DNA from: a virus
DNA length: 64,000 nt
Strand: one strand, 5' to 3'
IMG/VR virus record: IMGVR_UViG_3300045988_105534
Shown: piece by piece, positions 9,629 to 61,028 of the stretch
Position numbering within the stretch: position 1 is the stretch's first letter
Layout: each line of letters opens with the position of its first letter
Made by a program: the position numbers and the translations under genes
Notes under the pieces: model-generated
Databases searched by the model: none
What the model was told of the DNA's origin: nothing
What the model saw: only the letters and a program-made list of their open reading frames with translations

Positions 9629-9634
9629 TTAGTT

Positions 9635-34088: not shown

Positions 34089-34117
34089 TTGACACTATGT
34101 GCAATAAGTGGTATATT
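34089..34117 (+). promoter_or_regulatory. Rightward consensus promoter TTGACA-17-TATATT, divergent from the XRE gene
   Basis: TTGACA at 34089-94 and TATATT at 34112-17. Confidence 0.65.
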
Positions 34118-39674: not shown

Positions 39675-40021
39675 TGAACCACTTCTTATATATTGAATCA
39701 CGGGAAGAAGAGAATACATCCCTCGATTCTAAACGTGTTTTATTAAATGAAGAAAATTACAAACATATTATTTCATCATTAGATCATTATCCACCGACGG
39801 CAGATGAAGTTAAGAGAGCAATTTGTATTTTGATAGGACGATTGATCTATAGAAGCGTTTGGAATATGGAATCTGATATTGATAGTTTAAATATGAGTTT
39901 ATCCCCGCCAAAAGAAATGACGGTTGCAGAAATCGAAAAAGAACTCGGTCATAAAGTAAAAATTGTAGAGGAGAAAGAATGCCAATGGCAAAAAAGAAAC
40001 AAGGAATGTCGTTTGAAATGA
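39674..40021 (+). CDS. Hypothetical protein (115 aa)
   Basis: GAGAAAGGAGAG Shine-Dalgarno. Confidence 0.6.
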   Translation: MNHFLYIESREEENTSLDSKRVLLNEENYKHIISSLDHYPPTADEVKRAICILIGRLIYRSVWNMESDIDSLNMSLSPPKEMTVAEIEKELGHKVKIVEEKECQWQKRNKECRLK

Positions 40022-40290
40022 TGATGCAAAATATGGAAATTAATCCAAGACAATTGTATCGTCGTAGTTCGTGGAAGAAGACACGAACAACTTATGATTA
40101 TGTGTTTATGATGTGCGAAGAAGAATTAAATGAGATTATTCCATTTGATAAAAAATATAAAATGAAACCACTCTTATGTAGAGACCAAAATGGAGTTATA
40201 ACATTGGGATGGTTGCCTACACAAGAGGATATTTTCGCAAATGATTGGGTTGAGCAAGGATGGGATTTTAACAGTAAAAGGAAGAGGTGA
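40006..40290 (+). CDS. DUF2829 (Tad2-like) protein, copy 1; alternative start 39979
   Basis: N-terminus MSFEMMMQ...YRRSSW and C-terminus GWLPTQEDIFANDWV match the conserved ends of DUF2829 proteins. Confidence 0.5.
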   Translation: MSFEMMMQNMEINPRQLYRRSSWKKTRTTYDYVFMMCEEELNEIIPFDKKYKMKPLLCRDQNGVITLGWLPTQEDIFANDWVEQGWDFNSKRKR

Positions 40291-40298: not shown

Positions 40299-40583
40299 TT
40301 GAATTTTATAAAAGCAATGACTGCAATAAAAAAAGACAAAACGACTATAAGAAGAGGCATTTGGGGAAAGGAAAAGTATTTGAAAATTTATTCGTCAGAA
40401 TTAACTAATGTTTATTTTGAGTGTAATGATATGGGTGAATATAAGCCAGATTCAATTATTTTTTTATTTGATAAAGAAAACGCAGAAGTTTGGATACCTC
40501 TTGCGGAAGATGTATATGCAGATGACTGGGAAATATATGTTGAGTCAATTAATAAAGGTGAGCAGATAAAGGAGGAAAAATAA
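40299..40583 (+). CDS. DUF2829 (Tad2-like) protein, copy 2; TTG start
   Basis: MNFIKAMTAIKKDKTTIRRGIWGKEKYL ... VWIPLAEDVYADDWEIY; AGGAAGAGGTGAG Shine-Dalgarno before TTG. Confidence 0.55.
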   Translation: MNFIKAMTAIKKDKTTIRRGIWGKEKYLKIYSSELTNVYFECNDMGEYKPDSIIFLFDKENAEVWIPLAEDVYADDWEIYVESINKGEQIKEEK

Positions 40584-41539: not shown

Positions 41540-42301
41540 ATGGATAAAGGTATAACTATAGAATTTTATAGGAATTATGAATTTGATATTGTGCGAGGTA
41601 TTTGTCTTGGAGATGAATCAACAAAAATTGACTTCCCTATAAATGATGAAACTTTAAACATAATGGCTTCAGATTTTCAATATAATGAACAAACTATACA
41701 GTTAGATTATGGTTATAAATATAGAAGAAAAAATTATGTAAAAATCGACGAAATGCAAGCTACATCAACAAATATATTGTCATGTAACGGAATTATATTA
41801 AAAGATGGCATTAAGTTTTTTATTGGTGAAGCAGTAATGGATGTTTCTAGTGGAAAAGAAATATATAAATTATATGACAAAGATGTATATAAAGATAAAA
41901 CTTATTATAATCAAACGAAAGAAATGGTATTTGAATGGGCAAAGAAAGATATATATAAAGTTGTAATGATGATGGACAGGATTGCAGGAGAGGCAATTAA
42001 TCGAGCGATGACCGAATATGCTAATCACGGATCTTTGTATCGTATGTTCTTTCCACCTAATATTCCTGAGCCACAATATAGTTATTCTATGCATGATTTA
42101 TACTTGATGACTGATCCTAATATAATGAAGGGTGACATTCGTAGGCGTATATGCTGCAAGGTACCTAATTTTGATAGGAGGGTGAGGAAATGGGATTATA
42201 GTGCAGATCGTTATGAACATTACTTAGTGTTGGATTACAGTAAGGAAATCAATAAATTCATTAAAGAACAGGAGGATAAAAAATGTGAAGAAATTAAATG
42301 A
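41540..42301 (+). CDS. Hypothetical protein (253 aa)
   Basis: TAGGAGTG Shine-Dalgarno. Confidence 0.6.
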   Translation: MDKGITIEFYRNYEFDIVRGICLGDESTKIDFPINDETLNIMASDFQYNEQTIQLDYGYKYRRKNYVKIDEMQATSTNILSCNGIILKDGIKFFIGEAVMDVSSGKEIYKLYDKDVYKDKTYYNQTKEMVFEWAKKDIYKVVMMMDRIAGEAINRAMTEYANHGSLYRMFFPPNIPEPQYSYSMHDLYLMTDPNIMKGDIRRRICCKVPNFDRRVRKWDYSADRYEHYLVLDYSKEINKFIKEQEDKKCEEIK

Positions 42302-42818
42302 TGAACAGCGAAAGCTGATTGAAGATAACTATTCTTTGATTTGGCATTTGCATGAAAAGTATTTTACAAAATTTACAGATTTTGATACATATATGGATCT
42401 TGGGCGTATGGCAATTTGTAAAGCAGCATTAAAATGGGACGAGTCTAAAGGAACTTTTGGTACATATCTCTTCTGGGTATTACGTTCAGAAGTGAATCAA
42501 TATTATACAAAATGGCACAGACCAACAGAAAAAATGAATAGGAATGCTGAATCGTTAGATACGCCATTGGCAGGATATGAACCAGAAGATGATATTACAA
42601 TCGGAACAACACTGATGAGTGGGGATAACGTAGAAGATGAGGTACTTACAAAGGTACATTTTCAAAATGAGTTTGATAAATTGGCACCGAGAAATAAAAA
42701 GATTATTGTTTTAAAGCAGAAAGGTTTAACACAAAGACAAATTGCAAGTCAGCTTGGAATCACTCATCAGTGGGTTAGTCAAAATATTGTACAGTTTAAG
42801 AAAGCATTATGTGGATAA
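42285..42818 (+). CDS. Sigma-70 family RNA polymerase sigma factor (phage-encoded), paralog 1
   Basis: Region 2-like FGTYLFWVLRSEV and region 4 HTH LTQRQIASQLGITHQWVSQNI. GTG start with AGGAGGA Shine-Dalgarno. N-terminus parallels 48538. Confidence 0.8.
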   Translation: MKKLNDEQRKLIEDNYSLIWHLHEKYFTKFTDFDTYMDLGRMAICKAALKWDESKGTFGTYLFWVLRSEVNQYYTKWHRPTEKMNRNAESLDTPLAGYEPEDDITIGTTLMSGDNVEDEVLTKVHFQNEFDKLAPRNKKIIVLKQKGLTQRQIASQLGITHQWVSQNIVQFKKALCG

Positions 42819-42831
42819 AAGAGGTGAGATC

Positions 42832-43665
42832 ATGACAATTGAAGAAGTAAAGGATTACATAAACTCGTCTACAGAGTATGATTTTTTGCGAGATTATCCG
42901 CATAAAATTGCTTTTCTAACATTAGGTGGAAGTTATGCCTATGGAACAAATACAGAGGATTCTGACATTGATTTACGTGGCGTTTTCCTTAGTGATAAAA
43001 GAGAGATTTTGTTGAACAATAATCAAAACAATCTTGAGAAGACCGATGATCGTAAAGACGTTGATACTGTGATACATTCGCATATTAAGATGATCAACAT
43101 GCTTGCTAAGGGTAATCCTACGTTTTTAGAGTTGCTATACTTTGCACCAGATCGCTATTTGTATGTATCCGATATTGGTATGGAGTTGATCAAAAATAGA
43201 GATATGTTCTTATCTAAGAGAGTTTATCATGCATATAAAGGATATATATGTGATTGCCTGACTCGAACGAGTTTTAAGTATTATAAAAATAAAGATTCAG
43301 AGAAAGAAAAGCAAAAGGCGGAACGATACGCTAATAAATCAATGATGCACGCAGTTCGATTATTGTTACAGGGCATTGAATTATTGCATAACGGAACAAT
43401 GTTAGGATCTATGGATGACATAGGAAAAGATCTTGTAAAGATCAAAGAAGGATATAATAGTACGCATAAAACATATAGATTTGGCAAACACAATGAGCAT
43501 ACAGAATATTTCCCAAATCAGTCATACGATGTTTTTATTGAAGGATTACTTTATCAATTTGATTATGATTATATGAATACTGATTTGCCAGACGAACCAG
43601 ACTGGGATCGTATCAATAACTTCTTGATGACAACAAATGAACGAATTGTGAGAGGAATGGTGTAA
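42832..43665 (+). CDS. Pol-beta superfamily nucleotidyltransferase
   Basis: IAFLTLGGSYAYGTNTEDSDIDLRGVF matches the GS-x(9-10)-DxD nucleotidyltransferase motif; AAGAGGTGAG Shine-Dalgarno. Confidence 0.65.
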   Translation: MTIEEVKDYINSSTEYDFLRDYPHKIAFLTLGGSYAYGTNTEDSDIDLRGVFLSDKREILLNNNQNNLEKTDDRKDVDTVIHSHIKMINMLAKGNPTFLELLYFAPDRYLYVSDIGMELIKNRDMFLSKRVYHAYKGYICDCLTRTSFKYYKNKDSEKEKQKAERYANKSMMHAVRLLLQGIELLHNGTMLGSMDDIGKDLVKIKEGYNSTHKTYRFGKHNEHTEYFPNQSYDVFIEGLLYQFDYDYMNTDLPDEPDWDRINNFLMTTNERIVRGMV

Positions 43666-43667
43666 AA

Positions 43668-43937
43668 ATGTATGTAAAGATTGGAGACGAAATTGCTTTT
43701 CATCCTGGCGAATGCTTAGAAGAATTTGTTGAATCTTGCAGGATGACTCCTTATCAGCTTGCGAGTAAAATTGGCATGGATGTTGATTATGTTCAAGGGT
43801 TGATTGACGGATTACAAAGTATTACAAAAGAATTTGCAAAAGCAATGGCGGATCATTATGGGTTCGCTGACGATGGGCAGTTCTGGTTAAATTTACAAGA
43901 GACATTTGATAAGAAAGTAGGTGATAGAGATGTTTAA
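43668..43937 (+). CDS. Hypothetical protein (89 aa)
   Basis: Translationally coupled with the upstream gene. Confidence 0.55.
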   Translation: MYVKIGDEIAFHPGECLEEFVESCRMTPYQLASKIGMDVDYVQGLIDGLQSITKEFAKAMADHYGFADDGQFWLNLQETFDKKVGDRDV

Positions 43938-44463
43938 ATTAATAAAACAACCACGTTCTGATAACGATAAATATACTAAATATGATGTTGTGCTTGATAA
44001 AGAGTATACTGTAGAAGAATTTATTGATGCGATTGCAGATGGAAGAAATGGAACGCATGGTCAAATTACAATAAAAAATGATAAAGAAGCCATTGAATCA
44101 TTGGTCTATAATATCGAGAGTATTGATTATAGACATTCTATACTTCAAAATGCTGAAGAAAAAATTAAACAAGTATGGGCAGATGGTAGCTGGTTAAAAA
44201 TTAATTATACTATCTTACTTGAAAACAAAAAGGAAGCACAAAAAGGTTCGCTCAGGTTCATTGTTAAGAAGCCGAATGAGGAAGAATCAGTGGTGGTTAT
44301 TTTTAAGAACAAATCCGATGGCACATATTCATTTGTTAATTTGACAAAAGAGCATATTTGTTCATGTAAATTTAAAACAATTGAGGAAGCCATCCAGGAT
44401 ATGAATGATCGCTTAAGAAAAGGATTGATTGAGTCCTATATTGTGAAAGGAGAAAGAAAATAA
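43921..44463 (+). CDS. Hypothetical protein (180 aa)
   Basis: GTAGGTGA Shine-Dalgarno; overlaps the upstream gene end. Confidence 0.55.
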   Translation: MIEMFKLIKQPRSDNDKYTKYDVVLDKEYTVEEFIDAIADGRNGTHGQITIKNDKEAIESLVYNIESIDYRHSILQNAEEKIKQVWADGSWLKINYTILLENKKEAQKGSLRFIVKKPNEEESVVVIFKNKSDGTYSFVNLTKEHICSCKFKTIEEAIQDMNDRLRKGLIESYIVKGERK

Positions 44464-44801
44464 TGGATATACATATTGGAGATTTTTGGCAGAGTAAATG
44501 TAATCCAAAAGTAATTCAACATGTAGTTAATTTTTCATTTAGAATGGGTGGAGTCCCAAGTAGTAAAGATATGCTACTGGTCTGTGAAGAATTTCATTAT
44601 ACAAAGATAGGTGAGAATCCTGCCTCTGTCAAAGAAGATTCCAGATTCTTTTCACATATTACAGTGGATAATTTTAAAAAGATGAATCAATGTATTCTAA
44701 GTGCTGAGAGGATTATGAAAGATACTCAGGCATTTAAAACAGATAAAGATATTTTGGATTATTTAACGAAGAAAGTGGAGGAGAAATTAAATGCAAAATA
44801 A
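44463..44801 (+). CDS. Hypothetical protein (112 aa)
   Basis: AAAGGAGAAAG Shine-Dalgarno. Confidence 0.55.
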   Translation: MDIHIGDFWQSKCNPKVIQHVVNFSFRMGGVPSSKDMLLVCEEFHYTKIGENPASVKEDSRFFSHITVDNFKKMNQCILSAERIMKDTQAFKTDKDILDYLTKKVEEKLNAK

Positions 44802-45264
44802 TATATTTCAGATTTATTTGGCTGGCGGTATGCAGGATTTATCATTTGAAGAGCAGAATACTTGGAGAGAAAGAATTTGCAATCAAATTATTGCTATGCG
44901 TAGAATACTTAATGTTAATATGAAAGAAGTCAACATTATTAACCCCGTTGATTATTACAATTTTCAAACAGAGTTACATGATACAGAAAAAGAAGTAATG
45001 AGATTTGATACAAATTTTGTTAGAAATAGTGATCTTGTTGTGGTAAATGCGAATGATCCGAAGAGCATTGGTACATCTATGGAGATTGCAATTGCATATG
45101 AACGTCATATTCCTGTACTGATTTTGAATACAGAAAAGAAAAGATTGCATGCTTGGTGGGTGCAAATGTCTGACAAGATATTTGACGATGAGAAAAAATT
45201 ATGTACATATATATATGACTTTTATCTCAGGATGAATCATAGTAGTATTCGAGCATGGGTGTAA
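44791..45264 (+). CDS. Nucleoside 2-deoxyribosyltransferase-fold protein (NDT / dNMP N-hydrolase-like)
   Basis: IYLAGGM near the N-terminus; SDLVVVN ... GTSMEIAIAYERHIPVL carries the catalytic Glu in a GT-x-x-E context typical of the NDT/Rcl fold. Confidence 0.55.
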   Translation: MQNNIFQIYLAGGMQDLSFEEQNTWRERICNQIIAMRRILNVNMKEVNIINPVDYYNFQTELHDTEKEVMRFDTNFVRNSDLVVVNANDPKSIGTSMEIAIAYERHIPVLILNTEKKRLHAWWVQMSDKIFDDEKKLCTYIYDFYLRMNHSSIRAWV

Positions 45265-45425
45265 ATGCAATGATATAAAATAGGAATTTGAGGCAAAATG
45301 AAAGGAGTTGAAGTACTATCACAGCAGAAAAACAAGGCAAGTTTATTATTTTCCATCTGGATGATGGTAAAACTTGTAAATATGATTTATCAAATGGTGA
45401 TTGCTATGGCAAGAGCGGCAAGAAA

Positions 45426-46460
45426 GTGAAAGCTTTGAACAATATTCTGTCTGGACATTCAGCTGATGAATTGGATAAATTGTTTGTGTCCGATCCACAT
45501 TATGCAGAGTTTCTAAAATATGTAAATTGGCGAAGAAATTGTGAAATGGGAAGAACTACATGGGGCTTCATTGATTATAATTTAGGAACTTTGTTTGAAT
45601 ATGCAAATAAGTATTCTATGTGCGAGCAGTTCTTTGCTATAGGTTTTACACACAAACAAGTCACAGAAGATTTTAAATATTCAATTAATGAAGTACCAAA
45701 ATGGTTGAGAAATTATTGTCTTGGTGTGAAGAATAGACGATTGTTAAGTAATGATTTTGTTGATTTTTATAAGATGTATCCAGATTATGTACAAACGATT
45801 TTACAGACAGAGTATATGACATTAACTAAAGAATATTTAATAAATTTCTTTGAGGATAATCATAGATATCGTTTTACGAAAATTTTGGAGGCTTTAAATC
45901 AGGATTATGGCTATAATCTTGTAGATGTGTTTGTTTATATAGATAGAATAATTACATTTGAAGCTGCTACCAATAGTATAAATTGGTTACTCGGAGAATT
46001 GCGTGATTATGCCCGTATGATGGACGCAATCAGTCATAAATTTGATAGATATCCAAGACATTTCAAAACAACAATGGATATTGTCACAAGAAATTACAAA
46101 AGATTACAAAAAGAATTTTCGGAAGAAGTCTTTAAGAGCCGTATTAATAAAGAATACGAATTTACATATAAAGGACTGAGATTCTTTTATCCAGACTCCA
46201 CTCAAGACATTAAAGACGAAGCGGTGCAGCAAAATAATTGTGTGGCAAGTTACATAGATCGAGTCATTGATGGCGAATGCCATATCATGTTTTTGAGAAA
46301 CGCAAAAGAACCAAACAAATCCTTAGTGACGATTGAAATACAAAATGGACGAATCGTACAAGCACTGCAAAGATTCAATGATCCTCTAACTGCCGATCAA
46401 CAAGAAGCGGTCGATGCATGGAATGAACATTTTAGTAAGAAAGGTAAGGTGGCAGCATGA
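45426..46460 (+). CDS. Hypothetical protein (344 aa; GTG start)
   Basis: Long ORF with a weak Shine-Dalgarno; start uncertain. Confidence 0.5.
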   Translation: MKALNNILSGHSADELDKLFVSDPHYAEFLKYVNWRRNCEMGRTTWGFIDYNLGTLFEYANKYSMCEQFFAIGFTHKQVTEDFKYSINEVPKWLRNYCLGVKNRRLLSNDFVDFYKMYPDYVQTILQTEYMTLTKEYLINFFEDNHRYRFTKILEALNQDYGYNLVDVFVYIDRIITFEAATNSINWLLGELRDYARMMDAISHKFDRYPRHFKTTMDIVTRNYKRLQKEFSEEVFKSRINKEYEFTYKGLRFFYPDSTQDIKDEAVQQNNCVASYIDRVIDGECHIMFLRNAKEPNKSLVTIEIQNGRIVQALQRFNDPLTADQQEAVDAWNEHFSKKGKVAA

Positions 46461-46993
46461 TTAATATTAATGAATTGACTATAGATCATAAGATTAAATT
46501 AAAGAAGCCAATGGGATGCTTTGATAATCTTGGAGAGGTATGCGAGATTGTTAAGATTGATATAGATGAAAATGTTATTAATTTTAGATTTGGTGTAGAT
46601 GGAGTACATCTTGGCGTGATGTCAGGAGATGAATTGGAAAAATATTTTGATGTCATTGAACCAGCTGTTGTACCAGATGATTATGATTGGCATCCATATG
46701 GGTTTATTGACGGATATCAGGTTGAATATCGGGCGGATGTCAATGGAGGAATTCATATGAGCATTGGTTATAATGGATCAATTATTTCAGTTTCATATAA
46801 CCATCCAGAAATTGGATATCGTACAATTCAAAATGGACAGCAGGGTAAATTTTATGAAAATGATTTAAAGGTTGCATTTTTCAAATTACAGAAATCATAT
46901 TATGAGCAATTATATAAAGATGTTCGCTATGAAGTTGAATCTGAGTATTTTGCTAAGAGAGACGAATGTGGTCTTGAGCTTAATGAATGGTAG
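46457..46993 (+). CDS. Hypothetical protein (178 aa)
   Basis: AAAGGTAAGGTGG Shine-Dalgarno; coupled to the upstream gene. Confidence 0.6.
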   Translation: MININELTIDHKIKLKKPMGCFDNLGEVCEIVKIDIDENVINFRFGVDGVHLGVMSGDELEKYFDVIEPAVVPDDYDWHPYGFIDGYQVEYRADVNGGIHMSIGYNGSIISVSYNHPEIGYRTIQNGQQGKFYENDLKVAFFKLQKSYYEQLYKDVRYEVESEYFAKRDECGLELNEW

Positions 46994-47001
46994 AAGTAAC
47001 T

Positions 47002-47220
47002 ATGAAGGATGTAAAATTGATAATCCAATTAGCAAGTATTCTCATAGCATGTGTCGTTTATGTTGGAATATGGTGCTGGATTTATGACAATCGAGATGAA
47101 TACTTATATATATCATATCCAAAATGGATTCCTGGAAGATTCTTGAGTATGTTCTCTCAAATATGGTGTGTTATACATATTGTTGGTGCTATAGGTGTAA
47201 TTATATGGGCTTGGTGTTAG
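47002..47220 (+). CDS. Small membrane protein (72 aa)
   Basis: Two transmembrane helices; ATG five codons after the track GTG. Confidence 0.5.
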   Translation: MKDVKLIIQLASILIACVVYVGIWCWIYDNRDEYLYISYPKWIPGRFLSMFSQIWCVIHIVGAIGVIIWAWC

Positions 47221-47236
47221 AAAAAGGTGATGTAAA

Positions 47237-47635
47237 ATGTGCGATTTTAAGGTTGGAGATAAGGTGTATTTTGCTTGGTATGATGAACCATATACTGTTA
47301 AGTCTGGAATCATTACGGAGATTAAATGTCTTGGCAATCTAATATATATAATGATACAAGACAGTATAACGCATGGTTTATATATGGTTCTTTTAGAAGA
47401 GATATATCGCACTGAATCAGACATAAAAGCGGTTCTAAAACGAGAGTTTTATGGCAAGGTAAATGAGGTTAAAAAAGACATTCATACCTTAGAAGATTTG
47501 CTGAAATTTATGTATGACAATGATCTCACAAATTGGTCATCACCACATATAAATGGTTGGCAGACAGATTGGGTAAGTCGTGTTGCAGCACGAGAACTGG
47601 CAAAAGAAATTTGCGGTATTGAGTTAGGAGAGTAA
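47237..47635 (+). CDS. Hypothetical protein (132 aa)
   Basis: AAAAGGTGATG Shine-Dalgarno. Confidence 0.6.
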   Translation: MCDFKVGDKVYFAWYDEPYTVKSGIITEIKCLGNLIYIMIQDSITHGLYMVLLEEIYRTESDIKAVLKREFYGKVNEVKKDIHTLEDLLKFMYDNDLTNWSSPHINGWQTDWVSRVAARELAKEICGIELGE

Positions 47636-47641
47636 ATTCTT

Positions 47642-48046
47642 ATGAATAAACTTTATCAAGACAATGGAATGTATTGTCGAGCACAAAACCAATGTGATAA
47701 TAAATGGTTTGTCGGAACATATATCGGCAATGAGTGGTTGTTATTCCCAAGAACAGATAATACTGCTGTGTACGGATGTCAAATTAATCCAGAGTCTATC
47801 TGTAGATCAACAGGCAGAGAAAATGAGTTTGAATATGATGTAGTACAGTTGGTCGACGATGACGAAGACGTATATTTGATTATTTATAATGATGAAGATT
47901 TGGCGTGGCAGATGTTATCTGTTTATGGTTCTGATATGATTGACTTAGGAGAAATCAAGCCCAGTCAATATGTTAAACTTGGCAATATCAAAGAAGATGA
48001 TTATTGGAGAAAGGAATGGGAAAGACAGAGTGAAGAAAGAAAATAA
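47642..48046 (+). CDS. Hypothetical protein (134 aa)
   Basis: TAGGAGAG Shine-Dalgarno. Confidence 0.6.
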   Translation: MNKLYQDNGMYCRAQNQCDNKWFVGTYIGNEWLLFPRTDNTAVYGCQINPESICRSTGRENEFEYDVVQLVDDDEDVYLIIYNDEDLAWQMLSVYGSDMIDLGEIKPSQYVKLGNIKEDDYWRKEWERQSEERK

Positions 48047-48257
48047 GCAATATACACCTGAAGAAATTTTAAATGCATTGCATGTAATTCAGGATACATG
48101 TGAGTATTATCTTCATGGCAATGATGAAGATTGCAAAAAATGCCCATTATGTACAATGACAGGGAGAGCGCCAAGTTGCACAATTAGAGATTCTGATCCT
48201 TATGTTTGGGAGATTGATGACAATCCAGATACTACGTGGCGAGCATTTAAGAAGTAG
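47997..48257 (+). CDS. Cys-rich small protein, tandem paralog A (start uncertain)
   Basis: YTPEEILNALHVIQDTCEYY...C..C parallels the next gene; overlaps the upstream ORF end. Confidence 0.4.
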   Translation: MIIGERNGKDRVKKENKQYTPEEILNALHVIQDTCEYYLHGNDEDCKKCPLCTMTGRAPSCTIRDSDPYVWEIDDNPDTTWRAFKK

Positions 48258-48270
48258 GAGATGAAGATTT

Positions 48271-48507
48271 ATGGATGAGAAAAATTATGGAGAGTATACA
48301 AAGGAAGAAGTGGCTGTTGCACTAAAAACAATTCAAGATATTTGTGATTTTAATGGAGATAGTTGTGGTTGTAATATCACATGTCCATTTTTAGAATTAC
48401 TGGATGGAGGAACTAGGCAAATATGTCATATCTCCTATAATTATCCTGATAACTGGAAATTAAACAAATTTCCATCTGAGCAATGGGAGCCTTTCTACAA
48501 GGGATAA
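48271..48507 (+). CDS. Cys-rich small protein, tandem paralog B (78 aa)
   Basis: YTKEEVAVALKTIQDICDFNGDSCGCNITCPF; GTAGGAGATGA Shine-Dalgarno. Confidence 0.55.
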   Translation: MDEKNYGEYTKEEVAVALKTIQDICDFNGDSCGCNITCPFLELLDGGTRQICHISYNYPDNWKLNKFPSEQWEPFYKG

Positions 48508-48537
48508 TTACATAAACACAAGTAAATAAAGGAGTAA

Positions 48538-49080
48538 ATGTCGTTGAAATTAAATGACGAACAGAGAAAATTAGTAGAACAAAATCATAATTTGATTTAC
48601 TCTGCTATGACAAAATGCGGTATCCGCAGACAAGATTTTGATGACTATTATGGATTCGCTGCTATTGGGTTGTGTAAGGCAGCAATTGATTATGATAAAA
48701 CACGATCTAAATCATTTTCGACATATGCGTATTTATGTATACAAAATGAAATAACGGTATATAACAAATACAGATTTCGGCAGAGAAGAAAGGGTGATAT
48801 GAATACTATTTCATATAATCATATGTTAGATGATTGGGATGAAGACAAAAATGAAAATTCATTTCTTTTAAAGGATGAAGAAAATTTTGAAAAAAATATT
48901 ATTTTTAAGTTGAATTTTCAAGATAAATGTTACACACTAAATAATAAGGACAGAATGATTGTTGATTTAAAATCAAAAGGTTATACATATCAAGAAATTG
49001 CAAAAATGTTTGGTACATCATTTCAAGCGATACAACAAAAGATTAAAAAAATGCGATCAACAACATTTTCCAGATTATAA
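48538..49080 (+). CDS. Sigma-70 family RNA polymerase sigma factor (phage-encoded), paralog 2
   Basis: MSLKLNDEQRKLVEQNHNLIY; region 2-like FSTYAYLCIQNEI; C-terminal HTH YTYQEIAKMFGTSFQAIQQKI. Confidence 0.8.
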   Translation: MSLKLNDEQRKLVEQNHNLIYSAMTKCGIRRQDFDDYYGFAAIGLCKAAIDYDKTRSKSFSTYAYLCIQNEITVYNKYRFRQRRKGDMNTISYNHMLDDWDEDKNENSFLLKDEENFEKNIIFKLNFQDKCYTLNNKDRMIVDLKSKGYTYQEIAKMFGTSFQAIQQKIKKMRSTTFSRL

Positions 49081-49116
49081 AAGTTGAATAACGCAAACAA
49101 CTTTTATTATTTTTTT
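49081..49116 (+). terminator. Rho-independent terminator after the sigma gene
   Basis: AAGTTG-aataacgcaaa-CAACTT followed by TTATTATTTTTTT. Confidence 0.65.
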
Positions 49117-49291
49117 GACGCATTTGTTATAAACGTAATAGAACGATTATAACAATATAAGCCGATCAGATAAAATTATTTTTTGTTCCTGTTGACTTTG
49201 GCAGAGTTGACAGTGGATATAAATTGATGACTTATTTACAAACTAAAAACTAACTAAACAAATTTAATAACAAGAGGAGGAATTCTATTTA

Positions 49292-50536
49292 ATGAATTTT
49301 GAAATGACAGGGAAACTCAGCATTAGCAAGGACACAGAAAAATTTCACCCTTACAGTGAGACAAAATATGAAAAGTCAGGCTGGGTACGAAGAAGACTGT
49401 TATTTAATGTGACATGCGGTGACAGTAGACATATGTTAACTGTTGATGCAGGAAGTTTCGAAGATGGACACGGTGATGTCTATACATATTCCAAACCAGA
49501 ATACGACCCAAGTGGTAAGAAAATCAAAGATGGAGAAAAAATTCAGATTCCTTTTAAAGACAGATTAACATCTCCAAAACTGGAAGAAGTATCAGATTTC
49601 AGAAAATTTGTTTTTGATTTAGAAAAACCAGGAAGAAGATACAAATTAAAAAATGCTTTAGAAAAAATCAAAGAAGGTAAAGATCTTACAGATAAAGATC
49701 TTGCAGAAGTTGGATTAACATCTGTAGACGAACTTGAAAAAGAGTATGAGAAGAGTAAGAAGAGACATCATGAATTTATTTCTGAATGGGATTACGTAGA
49801 ATTCATCAAAAAAGTCATTGATAGTGGCAAATATGATGACTGTAACTTCCATATTAGAGGACGTGGAGATTATTCATATTCTGATGACAAAGAAAGATTT
49901 TATGAGAATCTGATCCCTAACAGAATTTATCTCGCAGCAGATGATGATGAACCATATTCTACAGCAACAATGAGTTTTGTATTTGGAGTTGATAGCTTAG
50001 ACGAAACAAGTGTTGAGGAAGACGGTAAATATTACGTTAATGGATTTGTCTTTGAATACATCCAGAGCAGAAAGAAAAAATTAGCCGTTCCAACAACAGT
50101 TGTTATTCCAGTTCCTGATAAAGAAAAAGACGAAAGCGGATACAAGAAGGCTAATGGCTTAAAGAGAAAATTCATTGTCGACGATGAAGACAAATACATG
50201 GAATACGGCATTGTCGTAGATATGATCAATGGTTCTCAGCGTGTAGAACTTACAGAGGACATGCTCTCAGAAGAACAGAGAGATGATCTTGAATGTGGAA
50301 TCATTACTATGGAAGAGATTCAAAAAGCGATTGGTGGAAGTGCTTATGGAGATAAGGTCAAAGAGTATCAGTTAATTAAGCCATCACGCAACGGTATTAA
50401 AGAGGGCGTTCAGGACACGGTTTATACAGCAGAAGATATGGAAGTACCTGCATTAGAGATTGACGAGAACGAAGATTTATTCTCAGAAGAATCAATCGAT
50501 AATGATAATGATGACGATGATGACTTATTCGATTAG
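49292..50536 (+). CDS. Hypothetical protein (414 aa) with SSB-like acidic C-terminal tail
   Basis: AAGAGGAGGAA Shine-Dalgarno. C-terminus DNDNDDDDDLFD resembles the SSB DDDIPF tail. N-terminus MNFEMTGKLSI is weakly OB-fold-like. Confidence 0.6.
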   Translation: MNFEMTGKLSISKDTEKFHPYSETKYEKSGWVRRRLLFNVTCGDSRHMLTVDAGSFEDGHGDVYTYSKPEYDPSGKKIKDGEKIQIPFKDRLTSPKLEEVSDFRKFVFDLEKPGRRYKLKNALEKIKEGKDLTDKDLAEVGLTSVDELEKEYEKSKKRHHEFISEWDYVEFIKKVIDSGKYDDCNFHIRGRGDYSYSDDKERFYENLIPNRIYLAADDDEPYSTATMSFVFGVDSLDETSVEEDGKYYVNGFVFEYIQSRKKKLAVPTTVVIPVPDKEKDESGYKKANGLKRKFIVDDEDKYMEYGIVVDMINGSQRVELTEDMLSEEQRDDLECGIITMEEIQKAIGGSAYGDKVKEYQLIKPSRNGIKEGVQDTVYTAEDMEVPALEIDENEDLFSEESIDNDNDDDDDLFD

Positions 50537-50614
50537 AGTTTAGAGCTTTTAGCTCTTTACTCGCTTGATGATTTATAAAACAAAATACTGTCTTTAAAAG
50601 GAGAAATTATACAT

Positions 50615-51823
50615 ATGGAATTACCAGTAATTAACGAAATTAAACCAGATATTAAAAACCTGTCAATCTATCTTAGATCAATTAAAAAGTTCGGAAAAAC
50701 TACATTGTTCAGAGATGTAATTGTTGCAAAATATGGAGATCCGTCATATGGACTTCTCGTACAGTGCGGATTCGAAAAAGGAACAAGGATGTTAGATAAT
50801 ATTAACACTCTGCGTATTACTTCATATGAAGATGCGGTAGAGTTAAAAGAATACTTAATTAACAAAAGAGTATTCAAAAGAGATAAGTCTGGCAAAATTG
50901 TTCGCAATGAAAAGAGAAAACCAGAATATGTTCCAGTAAAACACAATATTCAGATGGTTTGTTTTGATACCGTTGATGAAATTTGTCCATTATTTGAAGA
51001 AGAGACAATCAGGATCAGCAATAAAGAAGGACAGAAAAAGTGCAAAACTATCAACGCTGCTATGGGTGGCTATCAGGCAGGACAGAGATATACAGCAGAC
51101 ATGATCAAAGCTTACATGAGTGATATCGAAGATGCTGGCATTGGTGTTTGGGGAATTGCTCATACAAAATTCAAAACTATCAGAGAAAAAGGTGGCTTAG
51201 AAGAAGACGGATACCAGCAGTTAACATCCAATCTTGTAAGTGCTTATGAATCTGCTTTTGGTGATATCTTTGATGTAACTTTCACTGGTGTAATTGACAG
51301 AAATGTTGAAGTCAGAGGTGAAGGTGATAAAGCTAAGAGATATGCTACAGATGAAATTAGAAAACTTTATTTCCGTGGAACAACATTAATTGACGCTGGT
51401 GGTAGATTTGCTTCTGATGCAGTTCCTGAATATATGGTATTTGACAAAGGAAATATGGGAGAAGATTTCATTGAAGTGGTAGAAGACGGAATGGAGAAAT
51501 CTAAAACAGTTCTTTCTAAAAAAACTAAAAAGCCAACTCCTCAGCCAGAGCCAGAAGATGAGATCGAGGAAGACATCGATGATGTTATTGAAGACGATAT
51601 TACAGAAGCTGACGAAGATTTAATGGAAGATATCGTTGATGATATTGATGAAGATACATCAGACGATTATCCAGAAGATTTAAGAGAACATGTAAAAGAG
51701 TTATGTAAAACTTGTGAAGACGCAGAATTAAAAACAAAAGTCAAAGGAATCATTAAGCAGTATGGAAAACTTAGTGAAGTCGACGATGATGGGTTAAAAG
51801 AAATGTATGATCTGCTGAAATAG
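50615..51823 (+). CDS. Hypothetical protein (402 aa) with degenerate P-loop-like motif and very acidic C-terminal region
   Basis: IKKFGKTTLF ... MVCFDTVDE could be deviant Walker A/B; 60-aa D/E-rich tail. Confidence 0.6.
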   Translation: MELPVINEIKPDIKNLSIYLRSIKKFGKTTLFRDVIVAKYGDPSYGLLVQCGFEKGTRMLDNINTLRITSYEDAVELKEYLINKRVFKRDKSGKIVRNEKRKPEYVPVKHNIQMVCFDTVDEICPLFEEETIRISNKEGQKKCKTINAAMGGYQAGQRYTADMIKAYMSDIEDAGIGVWGIAHTKFKTIREKGGLEEDGYQQLTSNLVSAYESAFGDIFDVTFTGVIDRNVEVRGEGDKAKRYATDEIRKLYFRGTTLIDAGGRFASDAVPEYMVFDKGNMGEDFIEVVEDGMEKSKTVLSKKTKKPTPQPEPEDEIEEDIDDVIEDDITEADEDLMEDIVDDIDEDTSDDYPEDLREHVKELCKTCEDAELKTKVKGIIKQYGKLSEVDDDGLKEMYDLLK

Positions 51824-51834
51824 GAGTCTGAGCA

Positions 51835-52371
51835 ATGCTTGTAAAATGTAGAATTTGCGGCAAAAAAGTAGACAGAAACGAAGCTTTTAAAGTAGCAGTA
51901 GAAGGTAAACCAAATGCCTACTACTGCTCAGAAGCTGAGTATAACAAAATGATGGAGAACCGCAAAAATAGAAATGATACATATTATTGTATTTATGATA
52001 TTTTCGGCTATACGGTAACGAACACTGTATTAAATAAGGAAGTAAATGCTCTTGGCAAGATTTACGGATTTAAGCTGATATTAGAATACTTGCATGACAA
52101 TCAAGAATATTTAACAAGAATTGTTGGGAGAGAATACAATAGCGAATTTGCTAAGATTAAATATTTTTCAGCAATTTTAAAAAATAGTCTGGTTGATTAT
52201 AGGGACTCAGACGATGGAGTTCCACAGAGACAACAGGCTATTGTTAAACATCATATTGTAAGCAAGCAGATCAATGAAAATATCGGAGCTGAAAAAACTA
52301 AATACAAGAAGAAAAAGAAATCTCGTAGATGTATTAACGATATTTTGACGGAAGTTGGTGAGAAAGAATAG
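51835..52371 (+). CDS. Hypothetical protein with N-terminal zinc ribbon (178 aa)
   Basis: CRICGKK...YYC; position upstream of the helicase suggests a loader-type accessory protein (inference only). Confidence 0.55.
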   Translation: MLVKCRICGKKVDRNEAFKVAVEGKPNAYYCSEAEYNKMMENRKNRNDTYYCIYDIFGYTVTNTVLNKEVNALGKIYGFKLILEYLHDNQEYLTRIVGREYNSEFAKIKYFSAILKNSLVDYRDSDDGVPQRQQAIVKHHIVSKQINENIGAEKTKYKKKKKSRRCINDILTEVGEKE

Positions 52372-52427
52372 CAGATTTTGTTGCAGGAGTTAAAGACAAA
52401 TATCCGTCAAAATTATTAAAAGGTCGT

Positions 52428-53918
52428 ATGGAGGCAGAGGGAAATGTAATTAGTTGTTTCTTTAAAGATATGTTGCTTTTGGATGACACTACATTCGAAC
52501 AACACGATTTCATTACAAAAGATGGACTTTTTTACTTTTCTATGCTCAAAAAATTACGTGAACAGGGCTTCTATTCTCTGGATGAAATCACGATTTTATC
52601 CAATCTGTCTAAGAACGCTATAAAAAGATACACTGACATGGGAGGATGGGATTCTATTCAACATCAGATAGATATTATCAACACACAGAATTTTGATGTG
52701 TATATCGACATTCTGTATAGAGAAAACACTATGCTGAAGATGTATGATGATGGATTTAACCTGTTCAAAGAGATAGACATTGACGGCAAGAAAATCGTAC
52801 CAGTAACACTTTTCAGAAGAATGACTGCCGAGGAAGTTACGGATTGGTATGATGCAAGACTAAGTACATATGGTACGGGATATTCCAGTAAGATTCTGGA
52901 AGAAGAAGAAATTGATTTTGATGATGATTTTATTGATTCCTGCGTGGAAGGTGAAGAAAATGGAGTTCCATTTGATGTGGCAGGGATTGATATTAATGGC
53001 GAAGAAATGAATTGCTTTCCGTTTCTATCCAGACAGATCATGGGTATTCTTGAGGGAACACTCACTATGATGGGCGGATTCAGTAGTGCAGGTAAGTCAA
53101 CATGGTTTATTACTTTGCTTATGGCGTTACTGAATTATGATAGGAAAGTGCTAATTATTTCAAATGAAGAAAAAGTAAAGAAATTTAAAGTCAAGTTTAT
53201 GATCTGGCTTTTAGCGAAGCATAATCGTTATTTTAAGCTGACAAAGAAGAAAATGATGTCTGGGCAGATTGATGATGCAAGCCGAAGAGAACTAAAAGAC
53301 GTGCAACAGTTATGGCGAGAACAGTATAAGGGTAGAGTGAAATTCTTACTTATCAATGATGCTGATATGACTGTTGTCAAGAAGAAAATCAGAGAGCATG
53401 TACTTCGCTATGGATATGACACAGTGTTGTATGACACTTTTAAGATTCAAGAAGGAGATTTTAAAGGCAATCGTACTGACTTATCTTTGGTTCATGACAG
53501 TCGAGAGTTAGATAAACTTGCGAAAAAATATAACATTATCATGTTGGCATCTGTGCAGTTAGCAGAGTATATGAGAGGAAGGCTATTTCTTGATAGTTCT
53601 GTTCTTTCAAACTCTAAACAGATCAAAGAAGTATTAGAGAATCTTTTCTTGATGAGGACTGTATATGATGAAGAACTTGATGAAAAGAGTAAATTCTATT
53701 GTCGTCCATTTAGGCTAAAAAAAGTTAATGATAAATGGATTGAGGAAGAATATCATCCTGATCGTACTGCGGTGTGGAGAGCTTTATTTGTTGAGAAATG
53801 TCGAAGCGGTTCAAACTCATCAGATACAGGAGTTGGTTATCTACTTAAATTCGATGGAGATCATTGTATCTTTAGAGAAGTTGCGCAGGCAAGATTTAAA
53901 CATGGAGAAATCAAATAA
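52428..53918 (+). CDS. dnaB: DnaB-like replicative DNA helicase
   Basis: Walker A GGFSSAGKSTW in a RecA-like C-terminal domain; DnaB-like N-terminal domain; 496 aa. Confidence 0.75.
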   Translation: MEAEGNVISCFFKDMLLLDDTTFEQHDFITKDGLFYFSMLKKLREQGFYSLDEITILSNLSKNAIKRYTDMGGWDSIQHQIDIINTQNFDVYIDILYRENTMLKMYDDGFNLFKEIDIDGKKIVPVTLFRRMTAEEVTDWYDARLSTYGTGYSSKILEEEEIDFDDDFIDSCVEGEENGVPFDVAGIDINGEEMNCFPFLSRQIMGILEGTLTMMGGFSSAGKSTWFITLLMALLNYDRKVLIISNEEKVKKFKVKFMIWLLAKHNRYFKLTKKKMMSGQIDDASRRELKDVQQLWREQYKGRVKFLLINDADMTVVKKKIREHVLRYGYDTVLYDTFKIQEGDFKGNRTDLSLVHDSRELDKLAKKYNIIMLASVQLAEYMRGRLFLDSSVLSNSKQIKEVLENLFLMRTVYDEELDEKSKFYCRPFRLKKVNDKWIEEEYHPDRTAVWRALFVEKCRSGSNSSDTGVGYLLKFDGDHCIFREVAQARFKHGEIK

Positions 53919-53939
53919 TTAAAATGTGCGGTGTGATAT

Positions 53940-54968
53940 ATGTTAGACAATATAAAAAAAGAACTATTGTCTAATCCTGAAAAAATAAGAGAAGTCTTGG
54001 AGCATTTTGATTATTATCATGTAGTGATCAGAAACACATATATGTCATTTGGTCGAGATGAGGTCTCTTCAAAGAAGTCCATAGTAATCAATCTGAAAAA
54101 TAACAAAGCGTTGTTTGTGCATGATTATGCTAGAGCAATCCAAAAAGATTTGTTCTCATATATTATGCAGCAACGTGGAGTTGATTTTGCAGAGGTTTTA
54201 GGAGTTGTTAAAAACATCTTAGGGATTACTGATTACTATGATTTCTTTGATAGACAAGGTATTTTTGGCGGATTTTATGAAAGGATTAGAAATCACAATG
54301 TAGTTCGAATCCAAACTTATGATGAATCTATATTAGATAAATACAATAATGTAGGGAATTTAAGATTCCTTAAAGATAATATATCACTTGAAGCACAAAG
54401 AACTTTTGGCATTCGGTTTGATACATCATCTCAAGGGATCGCAATTCCGATTAGAAATCAATTAGGACAACTAATTGGCGTAAAAGAAAGATTTAACTAT
54501 GACGTTGAAGATGGTGAAATGAAATATTTCTACGATGTTCCGTGTCAAATGTCTCAAACATTATATGGATATTCTCAGAATTATCAGTATTTAGCCAACG
54601 GTGTTGTGTTGATATTTGAGGCAGAGAAATCTGTAATGCAGTGTTTTACATATGGAATTAGAAACTGTGTGGCACTTGGTAGTGGAACAATCAGCAAGAA
54701 ACAGGTGCAATTATTATTGGAATTAAATCCTAAAAAAGTAATATTTATGCATGACGTTGGCTATGATATTAAGAATATCATGAGAAATATTGACATGGTA
54801 AAAGGATATTCAAGATTTGCTGAGATTGAGTTAGGATACTGGGACTTTAATTTAAGTGAGTATTCCAATAAGGTATCACCGTCCGATATGGGAAAAGAAA
54901 AGTTAAATTACATATTAGAAAACGAAATAAAAATGATAGGGGATGAAGACGTCGAAGAAGAAATATAA
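53940..54968 (+). CDS. Toprim-domain DNA primase (DnaG-like catalytic core)
   Basis: Toprim motifs IFEAEKSVM (Glu) and FMHDVGYD (DxD). Confidence 0.6.
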   Translation: MLDNIKKELLSNPEKIREVLEHFDYYHVVIRNTYMSFGRDEVSSKKSIVINLKNNKALFVHDYARAIQKDLFSYIMQQRGVDFAEVLGVVKNILGITDYYDFFDRQGIFGGFYERIRNHNVVRIQTYDESILDKYNNVGNLRFLKDNISLEAQRTFGIRFDTSSQGIAIPIRNQLGQLIGVKERFNYDVEDGEMKYFYDVPCQMSQTLYGYSQNYQYLANGVVLIFEAEKSVMQCFTYGIRNCVALGSGTISKKQVQLLLELNPKKVIFMHDVGYDIKNIMRNIDMVKGYSRFAEIELGYWDFNLSEYSNKVSPSDMGKEKLNYILENEIKMIGDEDVEEEI

Positions 54969-56562
54969 CATTTTGAACGATTGCAGAGGACTTTTTGAAG
55001 ATGAGGTATTTGAAATTATCATGCAGGAGCGTGGTATTGACGATCCAGAACATTTTCTAAATCCTACGGAAGATGATTTACTTTCTCTTGATGACTTAAA
55101 AAATATTGATAAAGCATACAGACTCGTGATGAGTGCGGTGAATGAAGATAAACGTATTGCAGTACATTTTGATACAGATACTGACGGCATCACATCTGGT
55201 GCCGTTATGACACGATATTTAAAAAACATGACAGAAAATCCAGTAGATGTATACATTAACCGAGGCAAACAGCATGGATTAGCAAATCAGGACATTGCTA
55301 AGTTTTATGGGTATGATTTACTGATTGTCGTTGATAGTTTGGATAAAGACGAGACTCAGTATAAGGATTTAAAAGAAACAGGAGTTGATGTGATTGTGTT
55401 AGACCACCATGCCATCGATCCAGATGTTCCTTATGACAACTATTGCACATTAGTTTCTTCTCAGAGAGAATATGAAAATCCACAGTTATCTGGTGCAGGT
55501 GTTGTCTGGAAGTTTTGCAAGTATATTGATGAGCAGAATGGTACAGATTATGCAGATAATTTGGTCGATCTAGCAGGCGTTGGGCTGATTGCAGATATGA
55601 TGGATATGAGAGTAATGGAGAATCGTTACATTGTATCCGAAGCTTTGAAAGAAATTAGAAATCCTGCGATTAAGAAGATTATTGGTGGATTTGAATTCAA
55701 CAGCACAGCAGTTGCTTTTAGTATTGCACCGTTGGTTAATGCTGCAAACAGAATGGATCAGAATGAAATTGCTCTAAATGCTTTCCTTGAAGATGACAAT
55801 AAAAAGTTACGAGGATATATTAAACAATTAAAGCAATGCAAAGAAGACCAAAATGAAGAGGTCGCACAGCTGATGCCAATGATTGCGGAACAGTGTGAAG
55901 CTCAGAGTGATAAAAAGATGATCACAACTTTTATCGACACTGATTATGGTATTTCTGGGTTAATTGGAAACAAATTGCTTGAAAAATACCAGAAGCCGAT
56001 TCTTGTGCTAAAGAAAAATGAAGATACATATGCAGGATCTATGAGAGCAGTTGGTGTAAAAGACTTCCGACAGATGTGTAATAACAGTCAGTTGGCTGAA
56101 GCAAATGGACATGAACTTGCCAGTGGTATTGAAATTCCTAGAAAGAACTTTGCTGAGTTCACCTCTTATATAGAAGAAACTCTTCCAGATAAGCCAGAAG
56201 ATACAACAGTTGATGTCGATATTATGCTTGATATTTCAGACATCACAAGAAAAATGGTTGACATGATTAAGAAAATTGATCGTATTTCTGGGCAAGGATT
56301 TAAACCTGTAAGAGTTTATATTGAAGAGATTGACGACTATGACATTGGTCAGATGAGCAATTATAAACATCTTGTCCTGAAACCATGTAACAATGATAAA
56401 TTGTGGATCATTAAATGGAACTATGATGGATCGTTTGAGGATATGGAAGACCATTCTATGATGAATGATGAGTTTTGTGCAGTTACTACACTTGATTGCG
56501 GATTCTTTGGAAGAAAGTTTGTGCTGAAAGCTGTGTGTGATTCACTTGAAGAGGTGGGATGA
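54943..56562 (+). CDS. RecJ-like DHH-family single-stranded DNA exonuclease (start uncertain; alternative ATG at 55021)
   Basis: AVHFDTDTDGITSGAV and VLDHHAID are DHH motifs; RecJ-like linker; 513-539 aa. Confidence 0.7.
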   Translation: MKTSKKKYNILNDCRGLFEDEVFEIIMQERGIDDPEHFLNPTEDDLLSLDDLKNIDKAYRLVMSAVNEDKRIAVHFDTDTDGITSGAVMTRYLKNMTENPVDVYINRGKQHGLANQDIAKFYGYDLLIVVDSLDKDETQYKDLKETGVDVIVLDHHAIDPDVPYDNYCTLVSSQREYENPQLSGAGVVWKFCKYIDEQNGTDYADNLVDLAGVGLIADMMDMRVMENRYIVSEALKEIRNPAIKKIIGGFEFNSTAVAFSIAPLVNAANRMDQNEIALNAFLEDDNKKLRGYIKQLKQCKEDQNEEVAQLMPMIAEQCEAQSDKKMITTFIDTDYGISGLIGNKLLEKYQKPILVLKKNEDTYAGSMRAVGVKDFRQMCNNSQLAEANGHELASGIEIPRKNFAEFTSYIEETLPDKPEDTTVDVDIMLDISDITRKMVDMIKKIDRISGQGFKPVRVYIEEIDDYDIGQMSNYKHLVLKPCNNDKLWIIKWNYDGSFEDMEDHSMMNDEFCAVTTLDCGFFGRKFVLKAVCDSLEEVG

Positions 56563-60978: not shown

Positions 60979-61028
60979 TTCAATTTTACAAATATACCGA
61001 CAAGGAAATCAAAGAACTCATCAGCTCG

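Follow-up and report, generated by a model that had tools for sequence, protein, structure and literature searches.

Several sigma factors encoded by a single bacteriophage are a known arrangement: SPO1 and SP10 carry three each (gp28, gp34 and gp2.21, and their homologues), so that several sigma-70-family factors redirect host RNA polymerase in a large Firmicute phage (PMC9429907). In SPbeta, the late structural and lysis genes form a single operon that is read by the phage RNA polymerase YonO (PMC5467207; PMC8270828), and sigma factors of the type described below go unmentioned in the SPbeta reviews consulted. The subject of the present analysis is a 64,000-nt stretch of viral DNA (IMG/VR record IMGVR_UViG_3300045988_105534; hereafter the window) and the two sigma factors encoded in it, called sigma-A and sigma-B here; the bacterial proteins that bear these names are written as host or cellular sigma-A and cellular sigma-B. 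The source is an SPbeta-like phage of anaerobic gut Firmicutes with a genome of ∼160 kb, and judged by sequence and structural models the two open reading frames (ORFs) are paralogous, complete minimal sigma-70-family factors consisting of sigma-2, a linker and sigma-4. Whereas SPO1 and SP10 are lytic myoviruses that encode no RNA polymerase and have sigma factors that are not close paralogues of one another, those of the window are clear paralogues (32 per cent identity across 167 residues; BLASTP, E 8e-28), lack sigma-3, and occur alongside a YonO-type polymerase in an SPbeta-like genome. This combination of SPbeta-like genome, YonO-type RNA polymerase and two sigma factors is undescribed in the literature searched.

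Sigma-A (42285–42818, plus strand, GTG start, 177 aa) and sigma-B (48538–49080, plus strand, ATG start, 180 aa) were taken from the ORF list and its translations; their starts lie 6,253 nt apart, and the N-terminus KLNDEQRKL[IV]E[DQ]N is common to both. An original prediction, made from the letters of the window, had described two paralogous sigma factors here, and its coordinates, lengths, common N-terminus, spacing of ∼6 kb and claim of paralogy all hold. The NCBIfam sigma-70 superfamily model TIGR02937 matches sigma-A at 63.1 and sigma-B at 64.7 bits (cut-off 42.9), and both proteins match PHROG 351 (RNA polymerase sigma factor). With the single-domain models of Pfam, sigma-B reaches 37.7 for Sigma70_r2 (cut-off 24) and sigma-A 23.0, slightly under that cut-off; for Sigma70_r4, sigma-A reaches 25.8 (cut-off 24.1) and sigma-B 17–21. 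Region 4 of sigma-B stays below the Pfam cut-offs, yet the whole protein passes TIGR02937. AF2 models built from family alignments (mean pLDDT 78 each) predict two helical domains joined by a disordered linker of ∼40 residues with low pLDDT, and no folded sigma-3 between them. Sigma-2 comprises residues 1–77 of the sigma-A model, followed by the low-confidence linker (78–115) and sigma-4 (116–176); in sigma-B, sigma-2 spans approximately residues 1–88 and sigma-4 begins at about 115, with 85–115 predicted to be disordered. The C-terminal domain of three to four helices is confident in both models.

Comparison with solved structures points in the same direction. Foldseek searches of the Protein Data Bank (PDB) with both models returned sigma factors exclusively, the top match being a Bacillus subtilis SigH model (E 1.4e-4), and the sigma-B profile matched the PDB sequences of sigma-F (7e-18) and Fusobacterium nucleatum sigma-H (5.5e-16). 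Family profiles aligned with regions 2.1–2.4 and 4.1–4.2 of sigma-F and of the solved cellular sigma-B and sigma-A, jumping over residues 104–158 of sigma-F, which are its sigma-3. The earlier claim that both ORFs possess regions 2 and 4 is therefore borne out by TIGR02937, by the predicted folds and by these alignments, in which neither ORF lacks region 2.4 or 4.2. The conservation of regions 2.1 and 2.2 hints, indirectly, that both proteins might bind core RNA polymerase and confer promoter-specific initiation. No third paralogue was found among all six-frame ORFs of the window with phmmer and a two-sequence profile; a weak minus-strand match at 1–177 is an XRE helix-turn-helix (HTH) gene instead.

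The polymerase gene lies beyond the left edge of the window, on contig L009, which is 99.83 per cent identical to window positions 1–11935 and reaches 8.5 kb further left. The YonO homologue it carries (L009:1–2574, minus strand, ∼6–8.5 kb left of window position 1, 941 aa) shares 41 per cent identity with SPbeta YonO across 859 alignment columns (E 0) and keeps the catalytic FDNDGD. Proceeding leftward from the window, the order on L009 is an XRE-type HTH gene, a gene-free stretch of ∼3 kb, and a leftward arm with the YonO homologue. The likeness to SPbeta accordingly includes not only the replication gene order and the YonO homologue but also a leftward arm that starts near the YonO gene, divergent from the repressor gene and the rightward early arm (yonR / yonP–yonO); MrpR-type and integrase-like genes, as in SPbeta, are present in relatives. 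YonO and sigma loci occur together on at least 12 IMG/VR contigs, ∼50 kb apart. An RNA polymerase inside the window was also considered and rejected, as no catalytic motif was found there and a 689-aa ORF at 26871 matches nothing in the PDB or Pfam.

Our preferred reading, in which we place as much trust as doubt, is that the two minimal sigmas, made from the early rightward arm, load onto the host core enzyme and open two groups of phage middle promoters, the late genes being left to YonO. Under such a scheme the host sigma-A holoenzyme would first drive the early rightward arm, including both sigma genes; both products would bind host core RNA polymerase via the invariant N-terminal region 2.1 together with region 2.2, and would guide it to two different middle promoter sets. 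The sigma tier would then sit between early transcription driven by host sigma-A and late transcription driven by YonO, and neither factor need be a late sigma: by analogy one would not be required, because SPbeta YonO transcribes the late operon.

The layout of the window gives some indication of how the two genes are themselves transcribed. All called genes are on the plus strand (GC ∼33 per cent), and none is recognizably structural. At the head of the rightward arm are two perfect host sigma-A-type promoters (229–388, plus strand; TTGACA-N17-TGATATAAT, with starts at 229 and 359), opposite a divergent XRE-type HTH gene (1–154, minus strand, cut by the window edge). Going upstream from sigma-A, the first promoter with a strong consensus, again of host sigma-A type, is at 34089–34117 (plus strand; TTGACA-N17-TATATT with TG extension). 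Sigma-A has no promoter of its own, because its start overlaps, by 17 nt, the end of a 253-aa ORF (41540–42301, plus strand; no Pfam or PHROG match, position kept in the five relatives fetched) that also holds its ribosome-binding site, AGGAGG at 42271–42276, 9 nt upstream of the GTG. Sigma-A is thus embedded in an operon and probably translationally coupled. A tolerant scan for hairpins followed by T runs placed intergenic terminators at 955, 1473, 2357, 7017, 11383, 13055/13102 and 19620 and the next at 49110, with none between ∼19.6 kb and 49.11 kb. The last of these is a terminator-like hairpin directly after sigma-B (49077–49116, plus strand; 10-bp AT-rich stem, 11-nt loop, T7 run), which in other sigma-B alleles is retained with a different sequence via compensatory changes. 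A strong terminator, and the replication module beyond it, had been described after sigma-B in the original prediction; both are there, but to call the terminator strong was an overstatement, because the hairpin is AT-rich and reaches only −6.9 kcal/mol (z −2.2).

From these elements we infer that both sigma genes are transcribed by the host sigma-A holoenzyme in one or more long rightward units ending after sigma-B, and by the sequence these units lie in a co-directional array of early or middle genes. The original prediction had suggested a temporal cascade, middle versus late, and the evidence does not support it: the two genes lie in one such array with no intergenic terminator detected between them, the sigma-A gene lacks its own promoter, no sigma-specific promoter class was detected, and a YonO-type polymerase is present.

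The residues invariant in both paralogue families lie almost wholly at the N-terminus. An alignment of 12 A-type and 13 B-type proteins (25 members) has as its invariant columns across both families L4, N5, Q8, R9, L11, E13, N15 and L18, plus C45 only, so that all but the cysteine fall within the first 18 positions (KLNDEQRKL[IV]E[DQ]N..LI). In the profile alignments with PDB sequences, the N-terminal E-x-N-x-x-L-I corresponds to region 2.1 of sigma-F (IIEKNMRLV). The codons of this conserved segment vary at synonymous sites, and selection therefore acts on the protein. Between very divergent alleles the sole detectable DNA similarity is confined to the 5′ 60–75 nt (42285–42344 and 48538–48600 in the window). 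A protein partner common to both families could account for this conserved end, as could a role as recombination linker when alleles are exchanged, or the two together.

At the regions expected to read DNA the paralogues diverge. In the same alignment region 2.4 is FWVLRSEVNQ in sigma-A and YLCIQNEITV in sigma-B, and the region 4.2 helix is THQWVSQNI and SFQAIQQKI, respectively. We take the aligned positions to be the residues that contact DNA in sigma-70, and because they differ, sigma-A and sigma-B would be expected to differ in promoter specificity. Sigma-B has, in addition, L-C in place of the tryptophan pair of region 2.3, a pair whose role we take from general knowledge of sigma-70 factors. 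This replacement could also be expected if one paralogue were a decoy that binds core RNA polymerase, has lost productive promoter recognition and competes with host sigma-A, thereby contributing to host shut-off. That the core-binding N-terminal part is the most conserved segment, with the DNA-recognition helices varying freely between alleles, would suit such a decoy, as would the part of the work on pBS32 SigN consulted, which describes that factor as intrinsically toxic at high expression independently of its regulon (PMC10601692). We nevertheless think a decoy improbable, since in both proteins the sigma-4 HTH is intact, confidently folded and evidently under selection, a second decoy would be redundant, and the allelic diversity of the recognition helices resembles functional diversification rather than decay.

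The two-domain build of sigma-2 and sigma-4 at ∼180 aa, without sigma-3 in either the AF2 models or the profile alignment, is shared with the extracytoplasmic function (ECF; group 4) sigmas; by sequence, in contrast, both phage factors lie nearer the group-3 factors (sigma-F, sigma-H, sigma-K) minus sigma-3. The Pfam model Sigma70_ECF gives sigma-B 18.2 bits against a cut-off of 21.1 and does not match sigma-A, and neither a recognizable anti-sigma partner nor an autoregulated promoter of AAC/CGT type was found. Neither Pfam nor PHROG matches any of the conserved neighbouring ORFs (253 aa upstream of sigma-A; 95 aa and 78 aa upstream of sigma-B). The latter two (47970–48257 and 48271–48507) are Cys-rich small paralogues directly upstream of sigma-B in all relatives; they match no family, and nothing supports them as anti-sigma candidates. 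A split sigma pair, as the original prediction had proposed by reference to SPO1 gp33/gp34 or phi29-like systems, is excluded because sigma-2 and sigma-4 are both present in each of the two proteins. The analogies were in any case loose: in SPO1, gp34 is the sigma and gp33 an accessory protein, and to our knowledge phi29 has no sigma pair.

The top specific NCBIfam matches are the group-3 families SigF/G, SigK, SigE and SigH, and this raises a second explanation, modelled on sporulation-like phage sigmas and TcdR/BotR-type factors, in which one or both proteins are auxiliary sigmas directed at host sporulation, dormancy, stress or toxin promoters and not at the phage programme. Sporulation-like phage sigmas are non-essential and change host dormancy (PMC9429907), and the SPO1 factor gp2.21 is a weak match to sigma-B (28.8 per cent identity; tblastn, E 4e-3). 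Among known systems, pBS32 SigN (ZpdN) of B. subtilis is comparable by description: in the portions of the reports consulted it too is an alternative sigma on a large mobile element, active after DNA damage, although it acts singly and its regulon is a defined plasmid one (PMC6751061, PMC10601692). None of the curated subfamilies is reached, however, with SigF/G, SigK, SigE and SigH at 28–54 bits against cut-offs of 234–457: the two proteins score 53.5 and 46.8 with SigBFG (cut-off 234), 44.6 and 45.4 with SigF (321), and 42.7 and 41.5 with SigK (299), and SigH gives 27.9 (295). Scores 5–10-fold under every sporulation-sigma cut-off (SigF 45 against 321, SigK 43 against 299), and the absence of the sigma-3 of sporulation sigmas, with no folded domain between sigma-2 and sigma-4 and hence no three-domain architecture, speak against sporulation-type factors. 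A TcdR-family model is absent from the 25 best NCBIfam matches, no direct comparison with TcdR having been made, and phage c-st is not matched by sigma-B at E ≤ 0.05.

The distribution of the family likewise does not favour targets in the host. Sigma-A and sigma-B represent a sigma family with two paralogous branches that is known so far almost only from phage and metagenome sequences: the large protein database returned metagenomic proteins only (contigs up to 212 kb), a GTDB scan with exact peptides gave no match, and a second GTDB scan found relatives of 26–30 per cent identity in Lachnospiraceae only. Megablast of 12 kb against GenBank phages gave no match. Close cellular homologues are thus almost lacking, and the pair is a fixed feature of its clade beside the replication module, not a sporadic moron. 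On balance we consider a host-directed role rather unlikely.

Among cultured phages, the nearest parallel for the co-occurrence of sigma factors and YonO came from a screen of 50,697 GenBank phage records, of which 85 were matched by sigma-B at E ≤ 0.05 and 34 by the YonO homologue. Among the matches listed, the overlap consists of six cultured phages of Enterocloster bolteae, all of which have two places that match the sigma and a YonO-like gene that is distant. In PMBT24 and CB457P/CB473P (∼100 kb), the sigma homologues are 33 per cent identical to sigma-B and the YonO-like protein 25 per cent identical over 42 per cent of the query, and a module of PolIII-alpha, RecJ, primase, DnaB and ExoV is shared with the phage of the window; they differ in being distant, in genome size and order, and in having one sigma inside the replication module. 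The published PMBT24 annotation names that sigma SigK and does not discuss sigma function (PMC11035940); the second is listed there as hypothetical, and the gene resembling YonO as 'RNA-dependent RNA polymerase'.

Co-occurrence on at least 12 contigs, and independently in six cultured phages with two sigma homologues each, raises the question of whether the sigmas might be promoter-specificity or initiation factors of the YonO-type polymerase and not of the host core enzyme. Whether YonO needs further host or phage factors for promoter recognition was left open by Forrest et al. (PMC5467207), and no later paper settling the matter was found in the literature searched. Yet SPbeta YonO works without a detectable sigma homologue: a family profile run over 124/134 kb of SPbeta gave a best E of 0.18, against 4.5e-28 for the PMBT24 control. 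The other isolated phages matched by YonO (the SPbeta group, Perkons and D-1873) are not among the sigma-B matches at E ≤ 0.05. Most conserved domains of the multisubunit enzymes are absent from YonO (PMC5467207), and these include, according to the part of the survey by Iyer et al. consulted, the flap (SBHM) on which sigma-4 docks (PMC7824862). The same part of that jumbo-phage survey assigns sigma factors to a phage group without RNA polymerase and YonO-like enzymes to 0305phi8-36 and c-st, and within it YonO together with sigma-70 factors is undescribed (PMC7824862). We regard a partnership of this kind as highly improbable; were it real, a sigma-2/sigma-4 protein would work with a polymerase devoid of canonical sigma docking sites, and the repeated co-occurrence of YonO with two sigmas would be functional rather than inherited.

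The original prediction had remarked that the promoters of the two sigmas were not obvious, and the motif search of the window agrees, having found no sigma-specific promoter class. K-mer enrichment in the window gave nothing significant. Two candidates were dropped, namely TGATGAY..T, which was picked by eye and has 4 intergenic matches against 1.4 expected, and TTGGCA-N16-TAAAT, which has 2 sites only. No convincing sigma-54, LexA-box, ECF-type (AAC/CGT) or sigma-H-type element was seen by eye after sigma-B, and there is no similarity between the region after sigma-B and that after the YonO gene. What does recur is a class of the form TTGCACC-N2-TTGACA-N-GGTGCAA, 17 nt and TGnTAAAAT, in which the host sigma-A −35 hexamer lies within a perfect inverted repeat. 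One copy of this operator-flanked cassette is at 21832–21850 (plus strand; GCACCTATTGACAGGGTGC followed by an extended −10), and the identical 19-nt GCACCTATTGACAGGGTGC recurs at 63791–63809, giving two exact copies in the window with none expected. A third copy precedes the YonO arm (L009 5421–5439, minus strand) and is conserved upstream of YonO in 17 loci. Each genome thus has the cassette at least three times, and by analogy with the repeated operator elements of SPbeta it probably represents promoters under the control of a repressor. At 21832 it lies in front of a PemK/MazF-like toxin ORF, between two tyrosine-recombinase-like ORFs.

Conservation of the pair was followed through related contigs. 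All five Logan/ENA relatives (contigs fetched around A-type or B-type proteins) have the A…B pair in the same order. IMG/VR gave 63 loci on contigs up to ∼170 kb, and by a profile scan ∼47 of them have the pair on the same strand, 5–7 kb apart, so that the pair is conserved in about 50 metagenomic relatives with genomes of ∼160 kb; the ∼47 loci belong to the two closer tiers (≥93 per cent and ∼64 per cent sigma-A identity), where loci without the pair are mostly too short to show it. In the ∼40 per cent tier (contigs of 120–133 kb, and L012/L013 too), only an A-type gene is present within 10 kb on either side. Among the IMG/VR loci L014–L076, sigma-A alleles of 99 or 65 per cent identity to that of the window combine freely with sigma-B alleles of 100, ∼63, 49 or 45 per cent, and in L005 the sigma alleles have only 39 and 46 per cent identity to those of the window, against ∼79 per cent nucleotide identity for the backbone. 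The terminator hairpin changes along with the sigma-B allele and the non-coding region downstream does not; with the hairpin tracking the allele and the flanks constant, sigma-B and its terminator therefore behave as an exchangeable cassette.

That downstream region (49117–49291, plus strand, 175 nt) contains an inverted repeat, GTTATAA-N14-TTATAAC, and a host sigma-A-like TTGGCA-N16-TAAATT, and is nearly invariant in 52 loci, whatever the sigma-A or sigma-B allele or the gene that follows. To describe the conservation as extreme would be too strong, because the backbone itself is 79–96 per cent identical. The following gene alternates between a 414-aa protein with an acidic tail and a non-homologous YorF-like protein, independently of the sigma alleles. 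Across the 52 loci the variable positions of the region do not track the allele of either sigma, and as it does not co-vary with the sigma-B alleles, its reader is probably itself conserved, unless the alleles share a specificity.

Several of these observations weigh against a middle tier operated by the two sigmas. Sigma-A and sigma-B are seemingly co-transcribed, with no obvious temporal order. A two-block dyad search produced nothing above the shuffled null, no promoter motif is attributable to either sigma, and the only recurring promoters are host sigma-A-like; the searches covered the reachable sequence, in which the structural region of the genome is not included. The 175-nt region stays constant across five very different sigma-B alleles, and, more generally, sigma alleles of 39–65 per cent identity have been swapped on a backbone otherwise 79–96 per cent identical. 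Many dispersed allele-specific promoters are hard to reconcile with divergent sigma alleles that swap on a near-constant backbone. A role directed at the host gains something from these points, since no phage promoter class was found for either sigma and free allele swapping would be easier if the targets were not dispersed phage promoters; the location of sigma-A amid accessory or anti-defence-type genes (two Tad2-like genes, a DHH phosphoesterase and an RlaP nucleotidyltransferase) would also fit. Neither the two-sigma middle programme nor any of its rivals, however, explains well why such divergent sigma alleles are freely exchanged while the backbone stays constant.

Downstream of the conserved region, the replication module (49292–63779, plus strand) is of SPbeta type. 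Its genes are, in order, the 414-aa acidic-tailed protein in the YorF position, AAA_24/YorG, YorH, DnaB/YorI, primase/YorJ, RecJ/YorK, a LAGLIDADG insert, PolIII-alpha/YorL, ERCC4 and RecD/ExoV, and the Pfam names YorF, Phage_SPbeta_YorH, AAA_24, DnaB, DHH/RecJ, PolIII-alpha and 3D-domain protein correspond to the yorF–yorM order of SPbeta. By DNA polymerase the closest isolated phages are the Clostridioides difficile phiCD211 type, c-st and Geobacillus E3, at ∼42 per cent identity. The insert, a LAGLIDADG/HNH homing-endonuclease-like ORF at 56559–57824 between RecJ and PolIII-alpha, is present in the window, L002, L003 and L006–L008 and absent from L001, L004 and L005.

Other features were noted in passing. 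Tandem Tad2-like (anti-Thoeris) genes at 39979–40290 and 40299–40583 lie directly upstream of the DHH phosphoesterase gene and sigma-A, with a third Tad2-like copy to the right of the window (L006 17174–17437), and the stretch around sigma-A is of an accessory or anti-defence type, with DHH, RlaP nucleotidyltransferase, HTH antitoxin-like and nucleoside deoxyribosyltransferase-like genes. The gap at 45265–45429 before a PcfJ-like gene shows coding-like conservation and contains a 43-aa ORF; in L003 the PcfJ call extends over 23 more codons, and in the window the PcfJ start may be mis-set or the gene frameshifted. A tRNA match to Rfam (33626–33763; 46.4 bits against 29), with ∼66 extra nt in the anticodon-arm region, is not called by ARAGORN and may be an intron-containing or disrupted tRNA. 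At the left end of the window (1–1252), the promoters at 229 and 359 carry repeated AAATCAAGTA elements and are followed by ∼0.8 kb without a convincing ORF, with a terminator near 955 (−10.4 kcal/mol); this may be a non-coding RNA, and the 1.25-kb leader has no Rfam match. The gene-free stretch of L009 (5400–8368, ∼3 kb) has a strand-asymmetric composition by eye and AT-rich repeats, and could be an origin, packaging or end region. On contig L079, several tRNA-like sequences (GGTTCGA-type T-arms by eye) at 11200–12600, downstream of the YonO gene, suggest a tRNA cluster between that gene and the next large ORF.

The pair in itself is unsurprising, because phage sigmas and multi-sigma phages are textbook material. 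What deserves attention is the context: an abundant clade of ∼160-kb human-gut phages, found in dozens of metagenomes, that unites an SPbeta-type genome with YonO and two sigma factors, and that suggests a three-tier programme of host sigma-A, phage sigmas on the host core enzyme, and YonO. How YonO finds its promoter has been an open question since 2017, and the presence of the same combination in cultured Enterocloster phages makes experiments possible on what the sigmas do and on whether they are linked to YonO. The independent exchange of sigma alleles as gene-plus-terminator cassettes, moreover, constitutes a natural experiment on the evolution of sigma specificity.

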